Position numbers: made by a program. Source: Elusimicrobiota bacterium (GTDB lineage Bacteria > Elusimicrobiota > Elusimicrobia > Elusimicrobiales > UBA9959). Taken from it: a stretch of DNA of 51,179 bases. Shown piece by piece: positions 36,001 to 45,000 of this stretch. The stretch lies in contig JAINCQ010000038.1 in assembly GCA_036574205.1 (NCBI GenBank), positions 1-51,179 on the forward strand, in the 5' to 3' direction. Position 1 is the first letter of the stretch. The number at the start of each line of letters is the position of its first letter.

Positions 36001-39000
36001 TGTTTTTCAAAATTGTATTGCATATGCCCCATAGTTTTTCTATAATAACATAGAATCATTTAACTCCATTCTTAAAAACAATCGTCTTTTAAAGTGGAGT
36101 CAGCTTTTTATAAATTTTATTTTTTGGGATAGTAATGATAACTTAACATTAAGTTTAAAATTTATTTAAAAACCGAAAGCTTTAAATATATCATCATCAG
36201 AAGGCGATGTCTTTTCCTCTTTCTTTGTTTCTGTTTTAGGTTTTTCCTCTTTTGTCTGTGGAGGAATCTGACCGGGAAGAGTTTTCATTTTTCCAAACCC
36301 TTCCCCAACCGGCGCAACTATAACTGCCCTTATTCCTTCGGCAAATGCTAAAAATCCAGTATCAAGATTATAATACAATCTAAAAGGGGATTCTTTAATT
36401 TGAGGCTCATATGTTTTTCCAAGATTGTTTTTCTGCTGCTCCCATCCTGGATTATAAACTATCTTTCCCCTGACATCAACCTCATTGTCTATAACAGGGA
36501 GAGAAAATCTTATCTTATATATACCCATTGTATCGCTTACACCTGGCATAAAATTAAGGCTAATCATTGATGAAACATTTTCCTCTATTATATTTTCATC
36601 TTCTTTTTTTAACACATCGCTCAAAGCTTTTACAGTAACACCCTCTATGGGATTGCCATAATAATCTGTAATAACTCCCGCAATTGAACCTTCAAGAAAT
36701 ATTCCAAGCTTTGTGGTGGTAAAAAAAAGAAAATTTTTTTTGCCTATGACTTTCTTTGTTAAAGCCAAATCAGTAACACGCCCGTCTGTAAAATCAACAA
36801 CTTTTATATTGGAACTCGAAAAACATCCACTTAACAAAAAGGAGATTATTATTATAAATTTACTTTTTTTCATCCTTTATTTTTCCTCCAAAAGTCTTCA
36901 CAAAGAAAACCACTCTTCTATTTTTCTGCCTTCCTTCAGGAGTCGAATTCTCAGCTACAGGTCTATACTCTCCATAACCTATGGCGGAAATTCTTTTTGG
37001 ATTAAAATCATTATCAATAAGATATCTTACGACAGAGGTTGCCCTTGCTGTTGAAAGCTCCCAGTTTGAAGCAAACTGTTTTGTAAATATAGGAACATTA
37101 TCAGTATGTCCCTCTACAATTATCTCATAATCTTGAGAAAGTTTTTTCAATGCTGGAATTATTTTATCAATTGTCTGTTTTATCTCATCGGTAAGATCAG
37201 CCTTTCCACTTTCAAAAAAAGGCAATTGCCCCTGTTCTTGAAGAGTTATTCTCAAACCCTCTTTATTTATTTCAACCTGCCCGGACATCTCGCCTTTATT
37301 CATCATTTCTTTAATCTGCTGAGCAGCATTCTGAACATTTTTATTCAAAGCAGCGCTTAAAGCGTATAAAATAATAAAAAAACACACCATTTCAGTCATA
37401 AGGTCTGCGTAATTTACCATCCATGGAGGAGCGGGATGTCCTATCTGTGAAACCCTCGGGTCATCTTCGGGTATCATGTTTTTAGCTCTTACAGACATTT
37501 ATTCCTCTTTCTTTATAGCCTGTCTTTTTGATGGCTCTAAATAAGCCTTAAGATTTGCTTCTACTATAGAAGGGGTTGCTCCACTTTGAAGTAAAAGAAC
37601 ACCCCTGATAATTATCTCCTTTATAAATATTTCCTCTTCAGATCTTAATTTAAGTTTTCCAGCCATAGGAAGGAAAAGCCAGTATCCAGAGCCAAGTCCG
37701 TAAAAAGCGGATGCAAGAGCCAGCGCCATTCTTCTTGGCACCTGCGCCACATCGTCTATAGTTGAAAGCATAAGTATCATTCCAAGAACTGTTCCTATTA
37801 TTCCAAATGCCGGAGCATATGTTCCAAGAGCGTTAAATATTTCCCTGCCAATTTTATGCCTTTCTCTTATAAAATCAAGTTCAGTTTCAAGCATATTCTT
37901 TATAAAATCATGATCCGCGCCATCTATAACAAGCTGTATGGCTCTTTTCATAAAATCATCATTTATATTTTTTACATCTGCCTCAAGAGCCAGGAAACCC
38001 TCTTTTTTAGCTTTTTGTGATAATGCTACAAAAGTAGAAACAAGTTTTGACGTATCTTCACCCTTTGAAGTCATTACTTTTTTCAAAACCTTCCATAAAC
38101 CTATAACCCTTGACAATGGGAAATTTACTAAAAGCGCGCAAAAAGTTCCACCCATAACAACTAAAAGAGCCTCTATATTCATAAAAGGCAGAAAACCCTT
38201 CAATCCTTCCTGAAGGTAAACTGCGCCAACAACGAAACCCATAAAAACCAGTATCCCGGTAAATGTAGCTATATCCATATCTCACCTCATTTTTTTTCAA
38301 AACCCTCTATAGGATTTATAACCTTTCTTTCAGAATAAACTCTTTTCTTATACTCCACAACTTTTTCTATAACTAAATTTTTATCTTCTTTTACTATAAA
38401 TCTATTACCTGTAACAAGGTTTATAACAGTATCCGGAGACGATTCAACGCTTTCTATAAGCTCAGCGTTTATCACTATTTCCAGATTATTTAATTTATGC
38501 AATATTATCATCTCTGTATAATTATACAAAAAAAGATTATTTTTGTCCTTTCTTCAACTCCTCTATCTGTTTTTTTAACATTTCAATAGTTTTTTCTTTT
38601 TCTTCCCATCCTGTTACATAGGTATGAAGCTGCGCAAGAAGCTCATTATAATCTGAGTTTAAAGCATTCATGTTATTATTCAATTCCTCTATTTTCTTAT
38701 CAGCCATCTCGGATTTTGCTTTTGTCATAAAATAAGCGTTTTTAAGTTTTTCATATTCAGCTTTATACTTTTCCACAAATTGCATATATTTTGCCAGTTC
38801 CGCATTCAATCTAACTATCTCATCTTTACTGGACTGTTTATTATCATCCGACAAAGCTTGAGTTAAAAGTTTTTCATTTTCTTCCTTTAATTTATCTCTT
38901 TCCTCTATTATATTTTTAAGATCCTGAGAAAGCGACTCTATCTGCGAAGAATATTTTTCTTCAATATCAGAAATTTTCTTTTCAAAATCATCAGTTGATT

Positions 39001-42000: not shown

Positions 42001-45000
42001 TATTTTTTCATATATATCAGGTTTCTGGTTTTTTAAGTATTCAAGAACGTTTTTTCTTGTTTGTGGATCAGCCTCTTCAAGTATCTTCATTAACTGCTCC
42101 ACCCCTCCCATTACAAATTCCACACTTTCCTTCACTTCTTTATCAATAGCTTCTATCTGTTCTCTTGTAGCTTGTTTTACCTTCAAGGATTCAATAGCAA
42201 CTTTAGATTGTAGTTCAACTGGAAGCATGGCAAAAGCCTGTTTTGATATTTCTGGCTTAAGATAACTTAAAATTACCGCTATTATCCATGGGTCCTCTTT
42301 TTTAAGTAAAAAAAGATAAATAAGTTTTTTAAGATTTTCTTCATTGATGTAAGTAAAAGGCTCCAACTTCTTCATTTCTTCCTCCTCCTCTACCTCTTCT
42401 TCCTCTTTCTGGATAAAATTCATATCTATAGCCTGATGCCCTTCCTGCTTCTCTTCCCCTTCCCCTTTCCCTTCACCCTTACCGCCTTCTTCTCTTTTAT
42501 CCTCTATATTGACCTCAGCCCCAGGCTTTTCCATAATAGCTTTCAGATACCGTCTTAAAAAAGACCATAACGGTCCAAAAAGGTAAAATAAAAACAAGAG
42601 AAGCAAAATAGCATATAGAAGCGGAAGATAAACTAGAGGCTTTTTAATATCATCCCATATATTGGAAGTATTAAATTTTGTCGGTTTGAATATGACTATC
42701 GGAGGGTCTTTCCCTCCTATTTTATATGGAAGCAATAAATCATCTATTCTCTCCCTTGCTATCATAAGCAAACCCTGAGGTAATTTCTCGTCGTGTAAAA
42801 CAGTAACCTGAAACTTTGTTATTGTCGGCTCTACAGAAAATTTTACTTCTTCCACCCCAAGTGTTTGTTGTGTTTGCCTTCCATGTGCAGCCTCTGGCCT
42901 TTTATCATCTCCTAAAATATATTTAGGCTTTGGGATTCCTGGAAGAATAAAATCAGTATCTGCATAAGACTGAGAAGCGCCTTTTTCCTTATATTGCTGT
43001 AAAACCCCAACTCCCTCTTTTGACTGATCTCTTTTTTTTGTTATTATTTCAAAAAGCACATCCGCAAAAGCAAAAGCTCTGTCTTTCCCAAGCACAGGAT
43101 CCAGTATGTTATTTTTTATTTTTTCCTCTATTTCCTTTCTAAACTCATTTTGTTTTTCTATCAGGACAATATTTATATCATTTGAATATGTATTATTCTG
43201 AGAGAAAATTACTGAGATGTTAATAACCAAAAGAAAAAAGGATATTATAATACTGAACCTCATAAATATAATTTTACCTTATTAATAATTACAAAAATAT
43301 AACATAATTATTATATAAACCAAGCTAAATCTATTTTATCTGTTCAAGAAATTGTTTTACTGTAATATTGTTAGGATTGATCTCAAGAACTTTTTCCCAC
43401 ATTGCTTTTGCTTTAGCTTTTTGATCCATAAGGAAGAAAGCGCTTCCCATAATCTCAAGCGCCGTCTCATTATTCGGTTCAAGATCAAGTATATCCTGCG
43501 CTCGTCTTAAAGCAACATCGTATTTCCCTTCATATATAGCCTGCCTTGCGTCATAAATTTTTTGATCTATTAATGTAAAAATCTCAGGTCCCTCGGGTCT
43601 TCTTGTAAGTTCACTCATGCCAGCTTCTTTCTCTACCATATTAAGCAGAGAAAGCAATTTGTCGTCTTTTGGATTTTTATTATAAGCATGTCTTAAAACA
43701 TTAACAGCACTTCTTAAATCTTTTCCATCAACATACGCTACTATACCCCTTCTAATAAGTGTTTGAAGTTCATCCATACCAGTTGCATTAGGTACATAAG
43801 TAATAGCTGACTGAAGTTTATCAAGCATTTGTCTTATCTCAACATTACCTGGATCTGCATCAAGAGCGCTTTTGAATTTTTCAACTGCTTTTGAAAAGTA
43901 TCCTGATTTGAAATACTGTAAAGCCTGTCTTACTATATTTCTTATTTCAGAATCATGTTTAGCCTTTGAGGAATCACCAAATCTAATCCCCACAGAAAAC
44001 TTTGTAGTGTTTCCAAGAGAATGTATTCCCTGAGCTACATCAAGGTTAACCCCTTTGTATTTAATACCTATTCCAAAACTTGCTTCCTGTATATCTGGAT
44101 TTGCCATTATGCCAAATCTAAAAGCCGCCCAATAAAGTGGATAATACTCTCCACCAAACCTCAGGTTCTGTCCCCCACCTTGAGTTTTTGTAACATCAAG
44201 ATCGAATATCAAACTTCCCTTGAAAAGACTGAAAGATTGCCCTAACTTAAAAACAAGCGGAAAATTATCGTCGGTATCGCCAGATTTCATTGAGAAAATA
44301 TTCTGGACTCCAAAAGCAAATCTATACACCTTTGACATATTATAATTTATAGCAAGATCTATTGTATTAAAAGAATCCTTTGATGTGTCTACGCTTCTTG
44401 AAACATTTTTTACAGAAACCCCAAATGCCAATTTTGAAGAAACGTTTCTCCCCCATGCCAGTCCTATCGCTCTTTCTGTTACTTCAAATGTTCCAAGACT
44501 TTCAAGGCTTACTATTTCGTTAGTATTTGGATCAACTTTTATCGCAACCTTTTCAAATCCTCCAGAATTCATCTGATCCATAAATATACCAAATGTTCCT
44601 TTTGAAGCAGTTGGTTGAACATAGCCTATAAAATTAAGGGTTGTCTGCTCAAACATCTGCGCTTGCATAAAAGAAAACTCTTTTCTTTCAACAAGCGACA
44701 AGGCTGCCGGATTCCAGTAACTTGCTGTTGCGTCATCGCTTATTGCAAAAAAAGCACCTCCCATCCCCAGGGCTCTTGCTCCAACGCCATAATTTAAAAA
44801 TGCACCTGCCTGACCACCACTTTGAGCAAACGTATCAACTGTAAATAAAAAAACCATTATAAATGCTTTTAGCAGATATAATGGTTTAATTATATATATA
44901 AATACTCTATTCATAGCTTCGGCAGCCTGACCTTCCGGTATATACCGGAATCTTTGGCTTTGCGCCCCCAAATTTCTTTGGGTTTGCTATTATCGTACTA

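Follow-up and report, generated by a model that had tools for sequence, protein, structure and literature searches.

What could the rotor and stator genes of a flagellar motor be doing in a bacterium that has no flagellum to turn? The question is raised by a locus in a window of 51,179 nucleotides (the whole of the stretch analysed, from contig JAINCQ010000038.1 of an Elusimicrobiota draft genome), in which seven genes on the (−) strand form a module with a promoter-like site and a single riboswitch at its head. From the 5' end they encode an outer-membrane barrel with tetratricopeptide repeats (TPR), a FliF(RBM3)-FliG(MC)-TPR fusion, a coiled-coil protein, FlbD, MotA, MotB and a lipoprotein. 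A preliminary description had listed these parts with their coordinates, and each was found where it had been placed, on the (−) strand. The order is widely kept: the fusion has the barrel-TPR gene immediately upstream in 55 of 64 loci and, downstream, FlbD, MotA and MotB in 41/44 loci, the coiled-coil gene in 42/44 and the lipoprotein gene in 39/44. Literature searches did not find a description of such a module, and it looks like an undescribed motor-driven machine of the cell surface.

The lack of flagellar genes was re-examined in this genome, a draft of 95.31% completeness in 43 contigs, by searching for PF00771, PF01514, PF00460, PF00669 and PF01052, each of which matched in 4 of 14 known genomes used as positive controls. 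None of the five families was found, leaving the genome without a detected FlhA, FliF N-terminal part, rod protein, flagellin or FliM/N, as the preliminary description had held for FlhA, the rod and a full FliF, and FliG_C gave a single match. Across the phylum, the fusion is present in about 135 of 401 genomes (rows at E <= 1e-60, counted by hand) and FlhA in 9/401, so that incompleteness of metagenome-assembled genomes (MAGs) is no longer a serious objection to a genuine lack. Four genomes possess both the fusion and FlhA, and each of them also has, apart from the fusion, a frame of FliG length (320-346 aa), located on the FlhA contig in three (G064, G240, G325) and elsewhere in the fourth (G319). 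In a tree of FliG middle and C-terminal (MC) domains, the 19 canonical FliGs all fell on one side of a branch with an SH-aLRT of 99, and the 47 fused forms fell apart from them.

The fusion protein (41356..43263, (−) strand; 635 aa), identified by Pfam, structure models and homologues, starts with a transmembrane helix or signal (aa 4-21), followed by a predicted RBM3/beta-collar-like periplasmic domain (aa 27-198; 42670..43185), a second transmembrane helix (aa 209-235), an acidic linker, FliG_M, FliG_C and TPR. Its homologues number 252, and every named one is from Elusimicrobia. A model of the N-terminal part, built from a 59-sequence alignment (pLDDT 72.1), had FliF MS-ring chains as all of its best 18 Foldseek matches in the PDB (E 1.6e-5 to 3.4e-3), and VIA-align over 48,161 chains ranked FliF first (Z 11.7, 11.3 and 10.1, the top match with 102 aligned residues at an rmsd of 2.2) ahead of EscJ and PrgK (8.8). 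The full-length model also matched FliF by Foldseek, and the FliF-like fold of the preliminary description is thus reproduced with independent models. A search of 1.84 billion proteins with a profile of the domain (A2) collected 183 cluster representatives. YscJ_FliF_C (PF08345; cut-off 23.8) was matched by 11 of the 34 scanned representatives, for example P0226 (46.5 bits, E 6.6e-12) and P0171 (36.1 bits), and by the paralogous fusions at L104, L106 and L102; it gave nothing at E <= 0.01 against the present fusion protein itself, and against solved FliF chains the domain profile gave no better than E 0.75-1.2. Because distant family members match YscJ_FliF_C directly, the link to FliF rests on sequence as well as on predicted fold. 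Within the domain, a conserved loop (aa 84-134) is modelled with low confidence and contains ten residues invariant in 66 sequences (G86, Q89, Y91, F105, P108, G109, P111, P123, G128 and Q133). The second transmembrane helix and its juxtamembrane stretch (42559..42639, (−) strand) are unusually conserved, with many columns from P209 to E259 invariant among the 66 sequences and a helix at 209-245 in both the N-terminal and the full-length model.

The FliG middle and C-terminal (torque) domains occupy aa 303-513 (41725..42357) and were recognised by Pfam (FliG_M, 44.1 bits, 2.4e-11; FliG_C, 109.2 bits, 1.6e-31), by Thermotoga maritima FliG MC (3ajc, aa 300-517, E 4.1e-37) and by a Foldseek match of the full-length model to FliG MC 1lkv (E 1.7e-11). 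The Gly-Gly hinge and the MLIF motif are retained. Torque-helix charges are partly conserved, in agreement with the preliminary description: K465 and an invariant E480 are kept, and the positions of Escherichia coli R281, D289 and R297 are occupied by G (invariant), I and T. The protein ends in a cytoplasmic TPR domain (aa 539-635; 41359..41649; TPR_16, TPR_2 and other TPR families) with a pLDDT of 87-98 in the full-length model; none is found in the paralogous fusions.

Downstream lies a protein of 923 aa (38537..41308) that is proline-rich at its N-terminus and has no hydrophobic segment; family searches with it gave nothing beyond coiled-coil-type matches. The FlbD/SwrD family member (38287..38529; PF06289, 78.6 bits, cut-off 24.7, 2.7e-22) is likely to start at the ATG at 38511, and the PF06289 match begins at its residue 7; two reports describe FlbD as a torque enhancer (PMC13277936, PMC13740483). 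MotA (37499..38278; PF01618, 93.6 bits, MotA_ExbB 1.1e-26) is a flagellar-type stator A subunit that aligns over its full length with solved MotA (6ysf, 4.2e-50) and PomA (6.3e-46), keeps K and E at the rotor-facing positions R88/E96 of PomA, and is 65-92% identical across loci. MotB (36860..37498) has a plug (MotB_plug, 48 bits, 9.4e-13), an OmpA-like peptidoglycan-binding domain (83.4 bits, 1.6e-23) and a motif, NYADLMT, that retains the channel Asp. The last gene (36166..36873) encodes a lipoprotein with a signal peptide and the lipobox LSGC with its Cys, belonging to a family confined to Elusimicrobiota; nothing in Pfam matched it, and a CarboxypepD_reg-type beta-sandwich fold is a weak lead. 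All of these are on the (−) strand.

At the head of the module, the barrel gene (43331..44914, (−) strand) matches the PorV/PorQ-family model PorV_fam (NF033709) with 114.4 bits against a cut-off of 90, and its C-terminal TPR domain is presumed to be periplasmic. The open frame from a TTG spans 43331-44971, with the barrel at aa ~55-331; translation most likely begins at the ATG at 44914, 4 nt past the aptamer. The PorV, PorQ and PorV2 equivalog models all scored far under their cut-offs. The first gene had been taken as a homologue of the shuttle of type IX secretion (T9SS), and family membership stands, whereas orthology with PorV was rejected (27.4 bits against 250).

The aptamer itself (44918..44998, (−) strand; GEMM-I of the c-di-GMP-I family) scored 62.2 bits with RF01051 (gathering score 35), and no other place in the genome matched that model. 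The riboswitch stands before the barrel gene in all 55 eligible loci, those with a barrel gene and at least 250 nt of upstream sequence, a better support for its conservation in relatives than had been claimed, and the start codon follows the CCGAA tail by 2-7 nt in 54 of 56 riboswitches. Control by c-di-GMP had been proposed as well; the riboswitch is confirmed and its ligand is less certain. An A in place of G20 can move or broaden ligand specificity toward 3',3'-cGAMP. As this ligand-specifying position is A in 46/56 orthologous riboswitches, including the present one, and G in 10/56, the sequences suggest that c-di-GMP may not be the sole ligand. A promoter-like site, TTGACA-N16-(TG)TATAAT (45052..45079, (−) strand), lies about 55 nt before the riboswitch, just past the stop codon of an RND pump gene, and is the single 12/12 match to the sigma-70 consensus within 35800-45200.

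What the module might act upon is indicated by its neighbours in other genomes. In 39 of 51 loci, a giant protein that carries a T9SS sorting tail (TIGR04183, 27.9 bits against a cut-off of 23), in reading frames of up to ~19,000 aa, ends less than 800 nt upstream of the module and on its strand; in the present genus its gene is not adjacent and lies on another contig (C26), and the RND pump gene is found upstream of the operon instead. The giant protein occurs in 120/401 genomes, with 0/118 in family f2 and 0/89 in family f16, which are also the two without the fusion. Family f1 has 34 genomes with both, 2 with the fusion only, 0 with the giant protein only and 11 with neither or just a fragment, counts in which joint absence of usually adjacent genes from draft MAGs can be an assembly effect and related genomes are not independent observations. 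This link to one giant tail-bearing surface protein, absent from the preliminary description, is stronger than a general link to T9SS. The SprA-like gene is retained in 113/118 genomes of f2 and 51/89 of f16, bearing out the earlier remark that two families keep it without the module and making a role as general T9SS energiser unlikely. The barrel gene is one of 8 open frames in the genome that match the PorV/PorQ-family model, and four others directly follow genes for T9SS-tailed proteins as cargo-barrel pairs. Paralogous modules, whose fusions lack the TPR, show the order tail-bearing surface protein, PorV_fam barrel with TPR, fusion, MotA and MotB, and adjoin histidine kinases, a response regulator or a SpoIIE-type phosphatase.

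We favour, with moderate confidence, a flagellum-independent rotor-stator machine that moves a barrel-held giant adhesin. Copies of the fusion would assemble into an inner-membrane ring via the modelled FliF-RBM3-like domain, with the FliG middle and C-terminal domains suspended beneath the membrane as a ring of their own. Stators of MotA and MotB, tethered through MotB's OmpA-like domain to peptidoglycan and assisted by FlbD, would conduct ions (proton-driven) and push the FliG torque helix, so that the ring turns. We conjecture that the periplasmic collar and its conserved loop of 50 residues contact the TPR of the barrel. By analogy with the paralogues, which stand beside tailed cargo, the barrel may hold a single giant surface protein by its C-terminal sorting domain, and the output would therefore be mechanical work on that adhesin: the fibre would be moved or turned, for surface motility or adhesin handling, and not exported. 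The cyclic-dinucleotide riboswitch, with the start codon abutting the aptamer, would control whether the first gene, and probably the operon, is translated. The route of torque from the ring through the peptidoglycan to the barrel without a rod is a difficulty for this proposal.

The same parts could instead power export or assembly, with rotor and stator driving the threading, release or anchoring of the giant protein (5,000 to ~19,000 aa) through the SprA-like translocon and its own barrel, thus playing the GldLM/PorLM-like part in T9SS with no movement after export. The genome does encode a distant SprA-like protein, T9SS-tailed proteins and PorV-family barrels, the barrel of the module is in the same family as the T9SS shuttle, and giant protein and module are adjacent and lost together. 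GldM and GldL were not found in 3 genomes of the genus, but these searches were also unmatched in all 14 control genomes and so had no positive control. However, export as such can do without the module, because families that lack it still have the SprA-like gene and other tailed cargo. Known periplasm-spanning energisers such as TonB, TolA and GldM extend from the stator itself, with no large FliF/FliG ring; unlike them, the predicted ring, with full FliG MC and hinge motifs, looks made for continuous rotation. We therefore regard an export engine as rather unlikely. A scaffold or sensor that does not rotate, either a mechanosensor or an anchoring platform, is less probable again: it would tether envelope layers or report adhesin load to the cytoplasm, possibly via coiled coil and TPR, with ion flow used for signalling and not for work. 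The several lost torque-helix charges, the signalling genes beside paralogous modules and the second-messenger control of the operon are consistent with it, whereas the very strong conservation of MotA and the retention of FlbD and of the plug, channel Asp and rotor-facing charges of the stator argue for work.

That these genes are a decaying flagellar remnant, or a mis-binned set whose remainder is missing from an incomplete MAG, might be suggested by the draft state of the genome (95.3% complete, 43 contigs) and by the few members of the phylum that carry FlhA and canonical FliG. The intact full-length frames (30-77% identity) with fixed gene order in many genomes, the scarcity of FlhA, the fused form beside a real flagellar cluster in 4 genomes, its phylogenetic separation from canonical FliG, and the promoter-like site and riboswitch at the module make this very improbable. 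Hardly credible is an anti-phage system like Zorya, which is built on a MotAB-type ion motor and a long coiled coil. The module has a long coiled-coil protein and its MotB matches ZorB models (3.8e-21), but the latter is expected from common MotB ancestry; no ZorA model matched MotA, ZorC and ZorD were unmatched by any module protein, FliG, the FliF-like domain, FlbD and the barrel are not Zorya parts, and the operon is chromosomal, fixed and phylum-wide rather than a variable island.

Taken together, sequence matches and structure models support the earlier reading of the locus as a putative rotor (FliF-RBM3 plus FliG-MC) and stator core. Whereas the flagellum has an export gate, rod, hook and filament, the module is without any of these, and since FliG_N and all FliM/FliN partners of the flagellar motor are absent here too, torque may be transferred in a different way from that in flagella.

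The genes under study form a single compact minus-strand string between positions 36166 and 45079. The string opens with a promoter-like site at 45079-45052 (TTGACA, 16 nt, TG-TATAAT), the sole 12/12 consensus match within 9.4 kb. Behind it lies the aptamer of a GEMM-I riboswitch at 44998-44918 (Rfam RF01051; 62.2 bits, gathering score 35). Seven genes then follow in the order PorV/PorQ-family barrel with TPR domain, a membrane protein of 635 aa that combines the FliG middle and C-terminal domains (FliG MC) with a TPR tail, termed the fusion below, a 923-aa coiled-coil protein, FlbD, MotA, MotB and a lipoprotein, adjacent genes being 0-67 nt apart or overlapping slightly. 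The ORF finder placed the start of the barrel gene at a TTG within the aptamer; an ATG at 44914, 4 nt past the aptamer, yields a normal signal peptide for the barrel protein and is conserved in position among relatives. Downstream of the operon lie phosphoglucomutase-like and enolase genes, and directly upstream of its promoter lies the gene of an AcrB-family RND efflux permease (45099-48179, minus strand; PF00873, 899.8 bits). The RND pump is also upstream of the operon in the closest relative (locus L004), and a giant gene is found at that place in most relatives. The window also carries three tRNA genes on the minus strand, at 283-356, 8736-8809 and 8855-8929 (Rfam RF00005, 64-67 bits).

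The FliG middle and C-terminal domains that the preliminary description had placed in the fusion both exceeded their Pfam cut-offs (FliG_M 44.1 bits against 25; FliG_C 109.2 bits against 23.3), and residues 300-517 aligned with T. maritima FliG MC at E 4.1e-37, confirming the assignment. A full-length model of the fusion (66-sequence alignment, pLDDT 74.5) had FliG MC structures as its top match (E 1.7e-11). FliG_N, the domain that binds the C-terminus of FliF, reached 17.4 bits in the fusion against a cut-off of 25, with a match that overlaps FliG_M, and the FliG equivalog TIGR00207 reached 134.9 bits against a cut-off of 226.7, over profile positions 112-329 only. The Gly-Gly hinge of FliG is retained (G386, G387), and MLIF stands in the place of the MFVF motif. 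When the torque helix was aligned through T. maritima FliG, K465 corresponded to E. coli K264 and the invariant E480 to D288, both being kept, while the equivalents of R281, D289 and R297 were G473 (an invariant Gly), Ile and Thr, in agreement with the partial conservation of torque-helix charges described earlier. K264 and R297 are charged residues of the torque helix of E. coli FliG. The R281 and D288-D289 pairs of that helix are named in PMC12505986.

The amino-terminal part of the fusion had been described as a FliF RBM3/collar fold between two transmembrane helices. A model of the first 245 residues (59 sequences, pLDDT 72.1) comprises a helix, a long strand, a 50-residue low-confidence loop, a further long strand, a helix, a strand and the second membrane helix, with the flanking helices at residues 2-58 and 209-245 and the modelled periplasmic part consisting of one domain of ~170 aa (the N-domain). 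In a Foldseek search of the PDB with the N-domain model, the top 18 matches were all FliF MS-ring chains (E 1.6e-5 to 3.4e-3; next match 0.07); PDB entries among the matches show 33- and 34-mers, and one entry, 6sd1, names the RBM3/collar region. FliF also ranked first by VIA-align over 48,161 chains, with Z 11.7 (rmsd 2.2, 102 residues), then 11.3 and 10.1, followed by the ring-building domains of EscJ and PrgK (8.8), SpoIIIAH (8.2) and SpoIIIAG (7.9). In these alignments model residues 27-198 cover FliF 228-438 and 255-452, which we take to be the RBM3/collar region. The structural searches thus bear out the fold as described. The loop is poorly modelled but strongly conserved, with ten invariant residues among 66 sequences, and the second membrane helix and juxtamembrane stretch are likewise strongly conserved in the same set.

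The fusion of the window had no Pfam match in its N-part, including none to PF08345 (YscJ_FliF_C) at E <= 0.01, and a profile of the N-domain reached solved FliF in the PDB only at E 0.75-1.2 (3 of 9 rows FliF), which is not significant alone. The S-ring entry 8z4d was matched in the search that gave the T. maritima FliG MC alignment and, with the N-domain model, by Foldseek and VIA-align. When the profile was run over 1.84 billion cluster representatives, it recovered 183 proteins at E <= 0.001, and 34 of them were scanned against Pfam. FliG_C was present in 16 of the 17 long proteins among these, and PF08345 in 11 of the 34, ten times at or above the 23.8-bit cut-off (for example, 46.5 bits, E 6.6e-12). 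Three paralogous fusions also match PF08345. Because family members found with the N-domain profile match PF08345, homology of the N-domain to the ring-building domain of FliF, beyond likeness of fold, has support from sequence. The RBM1/RBM2 part of FliF (PF01514, YscJ_FliF) had no match anywhere in the own genome, whereas its control was matched. Short profile matches (100-250 aa, no Pfam family) were set aside as probable fragments; of the three looked up, P0157 and P0184 lie on contigs of 948 and 2,272 bases and the third on up to 6,107. Two metagenomic proteins, P0168 (372 aa) and P0187 (333 aa), combine the first 70 N-domain profile positions with a MotA_ExbB domain and may represent a different fusion or a low-complexity match.

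Among the stator proteins, MotA aligned over its whole length with the solved structures of flagellar MotA (4.2e-50) and PomA (6.3e-46), and it carries K and E at the two rotor-facing charged positions, R88/E96 in PomA. It is 65-92% identical across related loci. In MotB, the MotB_plug and OmpA-like domains were matched and the channel Asp is kept in NYADLMT, and FlbD, of the SwrD family, scored 78.6 bits with PF06289 (cut-off 24.7); the three identifications made in the preliminary description are thereby upheld. None of the NCBIfam stator equivalogs (MotA, MotP, PomA; MotB, MotD, MotS) was reached, the best being MotP at 234.5 bits (cut-off 394) and MotD at 166.3 (cut-off 283), so that, judged by these profiles, the operon proteins are relatives, rather than orthologues, of the named flagellar stators. 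According to a 2026 article (PMC13740483), the FlbD/SwrD family forms hexameric rings, with a contact to MotA that was predicted but unconfirmed.

Conservation of the operon was followed in 75 related loci from species-representative genomes, all of Elusimicrobia or unnamed MAGs, and all cross-genome counts given here refer to related, partly incomplete MAGs. Where at least 6 kb follow the fusion gene (44 loci), FlbD, MotA and MotB lie downstream on the same strand in 41, the coiled coil in 42 and the lipoprotein in 39, and the barrel-TPR gene lies directly upstream in 55 of the 64 loci where 2 kb or more precede the fusion gene. The exceptions are L041, which has no stator genes, and L077 and L078, which are partial matches to FliG only. 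With the query used, the barrel gene was not found in L051, L052 and L073-L076; in L073, L074 and L076, FlbD and MotA (and MotB where the contig extends) directly follow the fusion, with no coiled-coil match. In other classes of the phylum the fusion is shorter (450-573 aa) and lacks the C-terminal TPR (six loci, five genomes).

Paralogous loci keep part of this arrangement. At three of them (L102, L105, L106) a large surface protein with a T9SS-type tail is followed by a PorV-family barrel with TPR and then by the fusion; MotA and two MotB genes come after the fusion in L105 and L106, and no stator gene is present within the 8.7-kb contig of L102. At L104, a histidine kinase and a response regulator flank a barrel gene of subthreshold score (81 bits, cut-off 90) together with the fusion, MotA and a pair of MotB genes, and at two more loci the fusion and stator stand beside a SpoIIE-type phosphatase or a histidine kinase. 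FlbD, the coiled coil and the riboswitch were found at none of the paralogous loci. From the gene order that these loci share, the recurring core is barrel-TPR, fusion, MotA and MotB, repeatedly adjoining a tailed surface protein. L104-L107 have a tandem MotB pair behind one MotA, and kinase, response regulator or SpoIIE-phosphatase genes instead of a riboswitch. Also seen were a gene for a 23S-rRNA-intervening-sequence protein inserted between fusion and MotA (L105:8754-9137) and a nucleotidyltransferase/HEPN pair behind the fusion (L102:6563-7311).

RF01051 matched only once in the whole own genome. A covariance model from seven riboswitch copies, run on 81 loci, found exactly one copy in 56, and the copy stands immediately before the barrel gene in 55 of 55 loci that have this gene and at least 250 nt upstream, in line with the earlier statement that relatives carry the same riboswitch upstream of the orthologue. 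The start codon lies 2-7 nt past the conserved CCGAA tail in 54 of the 56 copies, a spacing that points to control of translation initiation as a likely mode of action. A single-sequence fold gave the aptamer and a weak AU hairpin across the start codon. The element had been called a c-di-GMP-I riboswitch; membership in the family stands by its score. The window has A where the Rfam consensus has an unpaired G before the first pair, the position of the ligand-contacting G20 in Vc2 numbering. Across 56 orthologous riboswitches this base is A in 46 and G in 10, the G forms belonging to more distant relatives. An A at G20 can widen or shift GEMM-I binding toward 3',3'-cGAMP, and the GEMM-Ib variant of Geobacter is cGAMP-sensing. 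The G20 split is natural variation within a single orthologous riboswitch and may indicate that the ligand has changed. A cGAMP synthase of the Hypr-GGDEF type was considered and tentatively set aside, all five GGDEF domains of the own genome having the ordinary Asp at the specificity-determining site; this serves as a lead only.

The operon barrel passed only the broad PorV/PorQ-family model NF033709 (114.4 bits, cut-off 90), and it stayed far below the equivalogs PorV (NF033710, 27.4 bits against 250), PorQ (70 against 220) and PorV2 (74.1 against 325). The first gene, described earlier as a homologue of a type IX secretion shuttle, is therefore a member of the PorV/PorQ family but no PorV orthologue. 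Eight open frames of the own genome match the family model (the operon barrel included; five over the cut-off), besides three short fragments, and the sorting tail TIGR04183 has seven matches, six over the cut-off. At C19:15227-19347, C7:16696-21284, C31:26545-33536 and C2:30244-34821, a PorV/PorQ-family barrel gene comes immediately after the gene of a large T9SS-tailed protein (1,040-1,993 aa), and these four pairs suggest one private barrel per cargo in this organism. The operon barrel is a paralogue of the cargo-adjacent barrels, with an additional TPR domain.

In relatives, a giant open frame lies immediately upstream of the riboswitch. Its orthologue in the own genome lies on another contig (C26:28683-44708, locus L109), with at least 5,341 codons before it runs off the contig end and a TIGR04183 tail of 27.9 bits; orthologous frames in relatives reach 10,000-19,358 codons, and the only Pfam match in the giant protein is its C-terminal FlgD_ig-like tail. 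A search with the last 1,000 residues placed the end of an orthologous frame within 800 nt upstream of the barrel gene, in the same orientation, at 39 of the 51 loci whose upstream sequence was long enough, and the adjacency of the giant gene to the operon extends to the deepest branches (genomes and contigs G010:C1, G001:C7, G032:C2, G004:C61, G007:C3, G119:C1, G169:C31, G035:C31, G071:C75 and G078:C38). The last 1,200 residues were found in 120 of 401 phylum genomes and in 0 of 118 and 0 of 89 genomes of the two families without the fusion. In the window's own family, both genes are present in 34 genomes and the fusion alone in two, no genome has the giant gene alone, and 11 have neither gene or just a fragment; as the two mostly lie side by side and giant genes are prone to poor assembly, the joint loss may partly be an assembly effect. 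At L042:1194-6206 the upstream tailed protein is another one, of 1,670 aa, with a weak match to the N-domain of AgmC, a gliding protein of Myxococcus (27.3 bits, cut-off 275), and a sensor-kinase-like gene after it.

The own genome further encodes a distant SprA-like protein of 1,760 aa (C29:6167-11449, locus L101, protein P0124; TIGR04189, 75.9 bits, below the cut-off of 200). This gene is present in 356 of 401 phylum genomes; the two families without the motor keep it in 113 of 118 and 51 of 89 genomes, as expected from the preliminary description, in which the fusion was missing from two large families that keep the SprA-like gene. A search with PF14349 (SprA_N) gave no match in the own genome or in any control, and GldL/GldM gave no credible match in three genomes of the genus, with none of 14 control genomes passing the cut-offs either.

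That rotor and stator genes occur without a flagellar locus raises the possibility of MAG incompleteness or a relic flagellum. FlhA (PF00771) was not found in the 43 contigs of the own genome (95.31% complete), with a control matching in 4 of 14 genomes, and rod/hook (PF00460), flagellin (PF00669) and FliM/FliN (PF01052) were not found there either, their controls being matched; the statement that FlhA, rod/hook and full FliF genes are missing thus holds in this assembly, and its FliG_C is single. Across the phylum, a fusion match at E <= 1e-60 was present in ~135 of 401 genomes (most of the fusion being covered in all but ~10, by hand count), and FlhA in 9 of 401. Fusion and FlhA co-exist in four genomes, each with a separate FliG-length frame of 320-346 aa, which shares the FlhA contig in G064, G240 and G325 and not in G319. 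In a quick maximum-likelihood tree of FliG MC (66 rows: 47 fused, 7 canonical from flagellated Elusimicrobiota and 12 canonical from the closest short matches), a branch of SH-aLRT 99 separated all 19 canonical FliGs from the fused forms, the tree being unrooted and its outside FliG sample narrow. By this branch, the fused FliG family would be an old separate lineage and no recent offshoot of resident flagellar genes. On the ~135 to 9 distribution, the co-existence with flagellar FliG and the tree, incompleteness and a relic flagellum were rejected.

What is observed is the set of parts with their predicted topology and gene order, the regulatory element, the lack of flagellar genes and the link to the giant protein; from sequence and predicted structure, the following working is proposed for them. 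The RBM3-like domain would build an inner-membrane ring, as FliF does, and peptidoglycan-anchored MotAB units would turn the FliG ring attached to it. The periplasmic collar and its conserved loop would meet the TPR of the barrel, and the barrel would hold the tail of the giant protein; by this chain of ring, stator, collar-TPR contact, barrel and giant tail, the motor could do work on the giant fibre at the cell surface. A general energiser of type IX secretion was rejected as the main reading, the SprA-like gene being kept where the module is missing. A Zorya-type defence system was also considered and rejected: MotB does match ZorB models, but MotA matches no ZorA model, and there was no match to ZorC or ZorD. 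For the proposed motor, moving or turning of the fibre is favoured over export, because the SprA-like gene, which would serve export of tailed cargo, persists in lineages without the module and because a rim-driven FliF/FliG ring looks made for continuous rotation. In its fullest form, the reading would be a new prokaryotic surface organelle, in which a flagellar-type rotary motor without secretion gate, rod or filament turns or drives one fibre of 5,000 to ~19,000 residues via an outer-membrane barrel; we put this forward tentatively, as possible but rather doubtful.

To our knowledge, FliG and MotAB are otherwise used in flagella, and we know of no FliF/FliG rotor in the ion motors described outside flagella (Tol, Ton, GldLM, Agl, Zorya). 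The module is not described in the literature that we found, supplements apart, on Elusimicrobia flagellar motors, non-flagellar FliG/MotAB, FlbD/SwrD, FliF-FliG fusions and giant genes, and no natural FliF-FliG fusion was found in print, the published ones being engineered. In the text of a 2025 survey of MotAB evolution covered by term search, Elusimicrobia and FlbD are nowhere mentioned (PMC12505986). A giant-gene preprint has Elusimicrobia solely as a downloaded data set, a survey of huge proteins counts them among the phyla rich in such proteins (PMC11573180), and the preprint version of PMC7785019 names flagella once, of protists only.

A rotor-stator core is under strong selection across a phylum almost wholly without flagella, and it is joined to type-IX-like outer-membrane parts and to some of the longest bacterial reading frames. 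The fusion protein lends itself to cryo-EM of rings, and the riboswitch offers both an entry point for work on regulation and an example from nature of variation at a ligand-specifying base. Should the structure rotate, the torque-generating module of the flagellum would be separable from the export apparatus, giving a concrete test case for the origin of the flagellar motor and a new mechanism of motility or adhesion in an uncultured, widespread groundwater group. If the organelle reading is true, free-living Elusimicrobiota would have an unseen motility, or an active handling of adhesins, switched by a cyclic dinucleotide, and a living rotor-stator without type III export would bear on the stepwise evolution of the flagellar motor.

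Compared with the flagellar motor core, the module shares a homologous FliG MC, a FliF RBM3/collar-like domain between two membrane helices, a flagellar-type MotA, a MotB with plug, channel Asp and peptidoglycan-binding domain, and the flbD-motA-motB order. By contrast, it has no FlhA, FliF RBM1/2, rod, hook, flagellin or FliM/FliN, its FliF and FliG parts form a single chain that lacks FliG_N and the FliF C-terminal peptide, some torque-helix charges are substituted, and TPR domains, the 923-aa coiled coil, an outer-membrane barrel, a lipoprotein and the giant adhesin are added. Like the engineered FliF-FliG fusions of Vibrio and Salmonella, it places a ring-forming FliF part and FliG on a single chain; those are laboratory constructs with full-length FliF, whereas the present fusion is natural and has the RBM3-like domain only. 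The engineered fusions are reported to form rings, and their S-ring has been solved (PDB 8z4d; see also 10.1101/2023.02.06.527414 and PMC11481574). The regulatory element resembles c-di-GMP-I (GEMM-I) riboswitches in an aptamer over the Rfam threshold ahead of a cell-surface or motility-type operon, and differs from them in the A at G20 in the window and 46 of 56 orthologues and in a start codon that directly abuts the aptamer.

Two further systems were compared. In surface motility of Myxococcus, the Agl-Glt machinery relies on a motor of the MotAB/TolQR type together with TPR proteins, outer-membrane barrels and a cytoplasmic coiled-coil protein; it is not known to have a FliG or FliF-like rotor, and the weak matches here to GltE and the AgmC N-domain are far below cut-offs and at the level of repeats only. 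The type IX secretion and gliding machinery of Bacteroidota comprises the GldLM/PorLM motor, the SprA translocon, the PorV shuttle and the giant adhesin SprB with its partner barrel SprF. Shared features are a PorV/PorQ-family barrel, T9SS-type tails, a distant SprA-like protein in the own genome and a multi-thousand-residue adhesin gene that adjoins a barrel gene, together with the plan, here a predicted one, of an ion-driven inner-membrane motor coupled to barrels that hold sorting-domain proteins. By contrast, the present barrel carries TPR and is no PorV, PorQ or PorV2 orthologue, the SprA-like gene persists without the module, and the motor is of the MotAB/FliG/FliF type rather than GldLM, with GldL and GldM not found in the three genomes searched.
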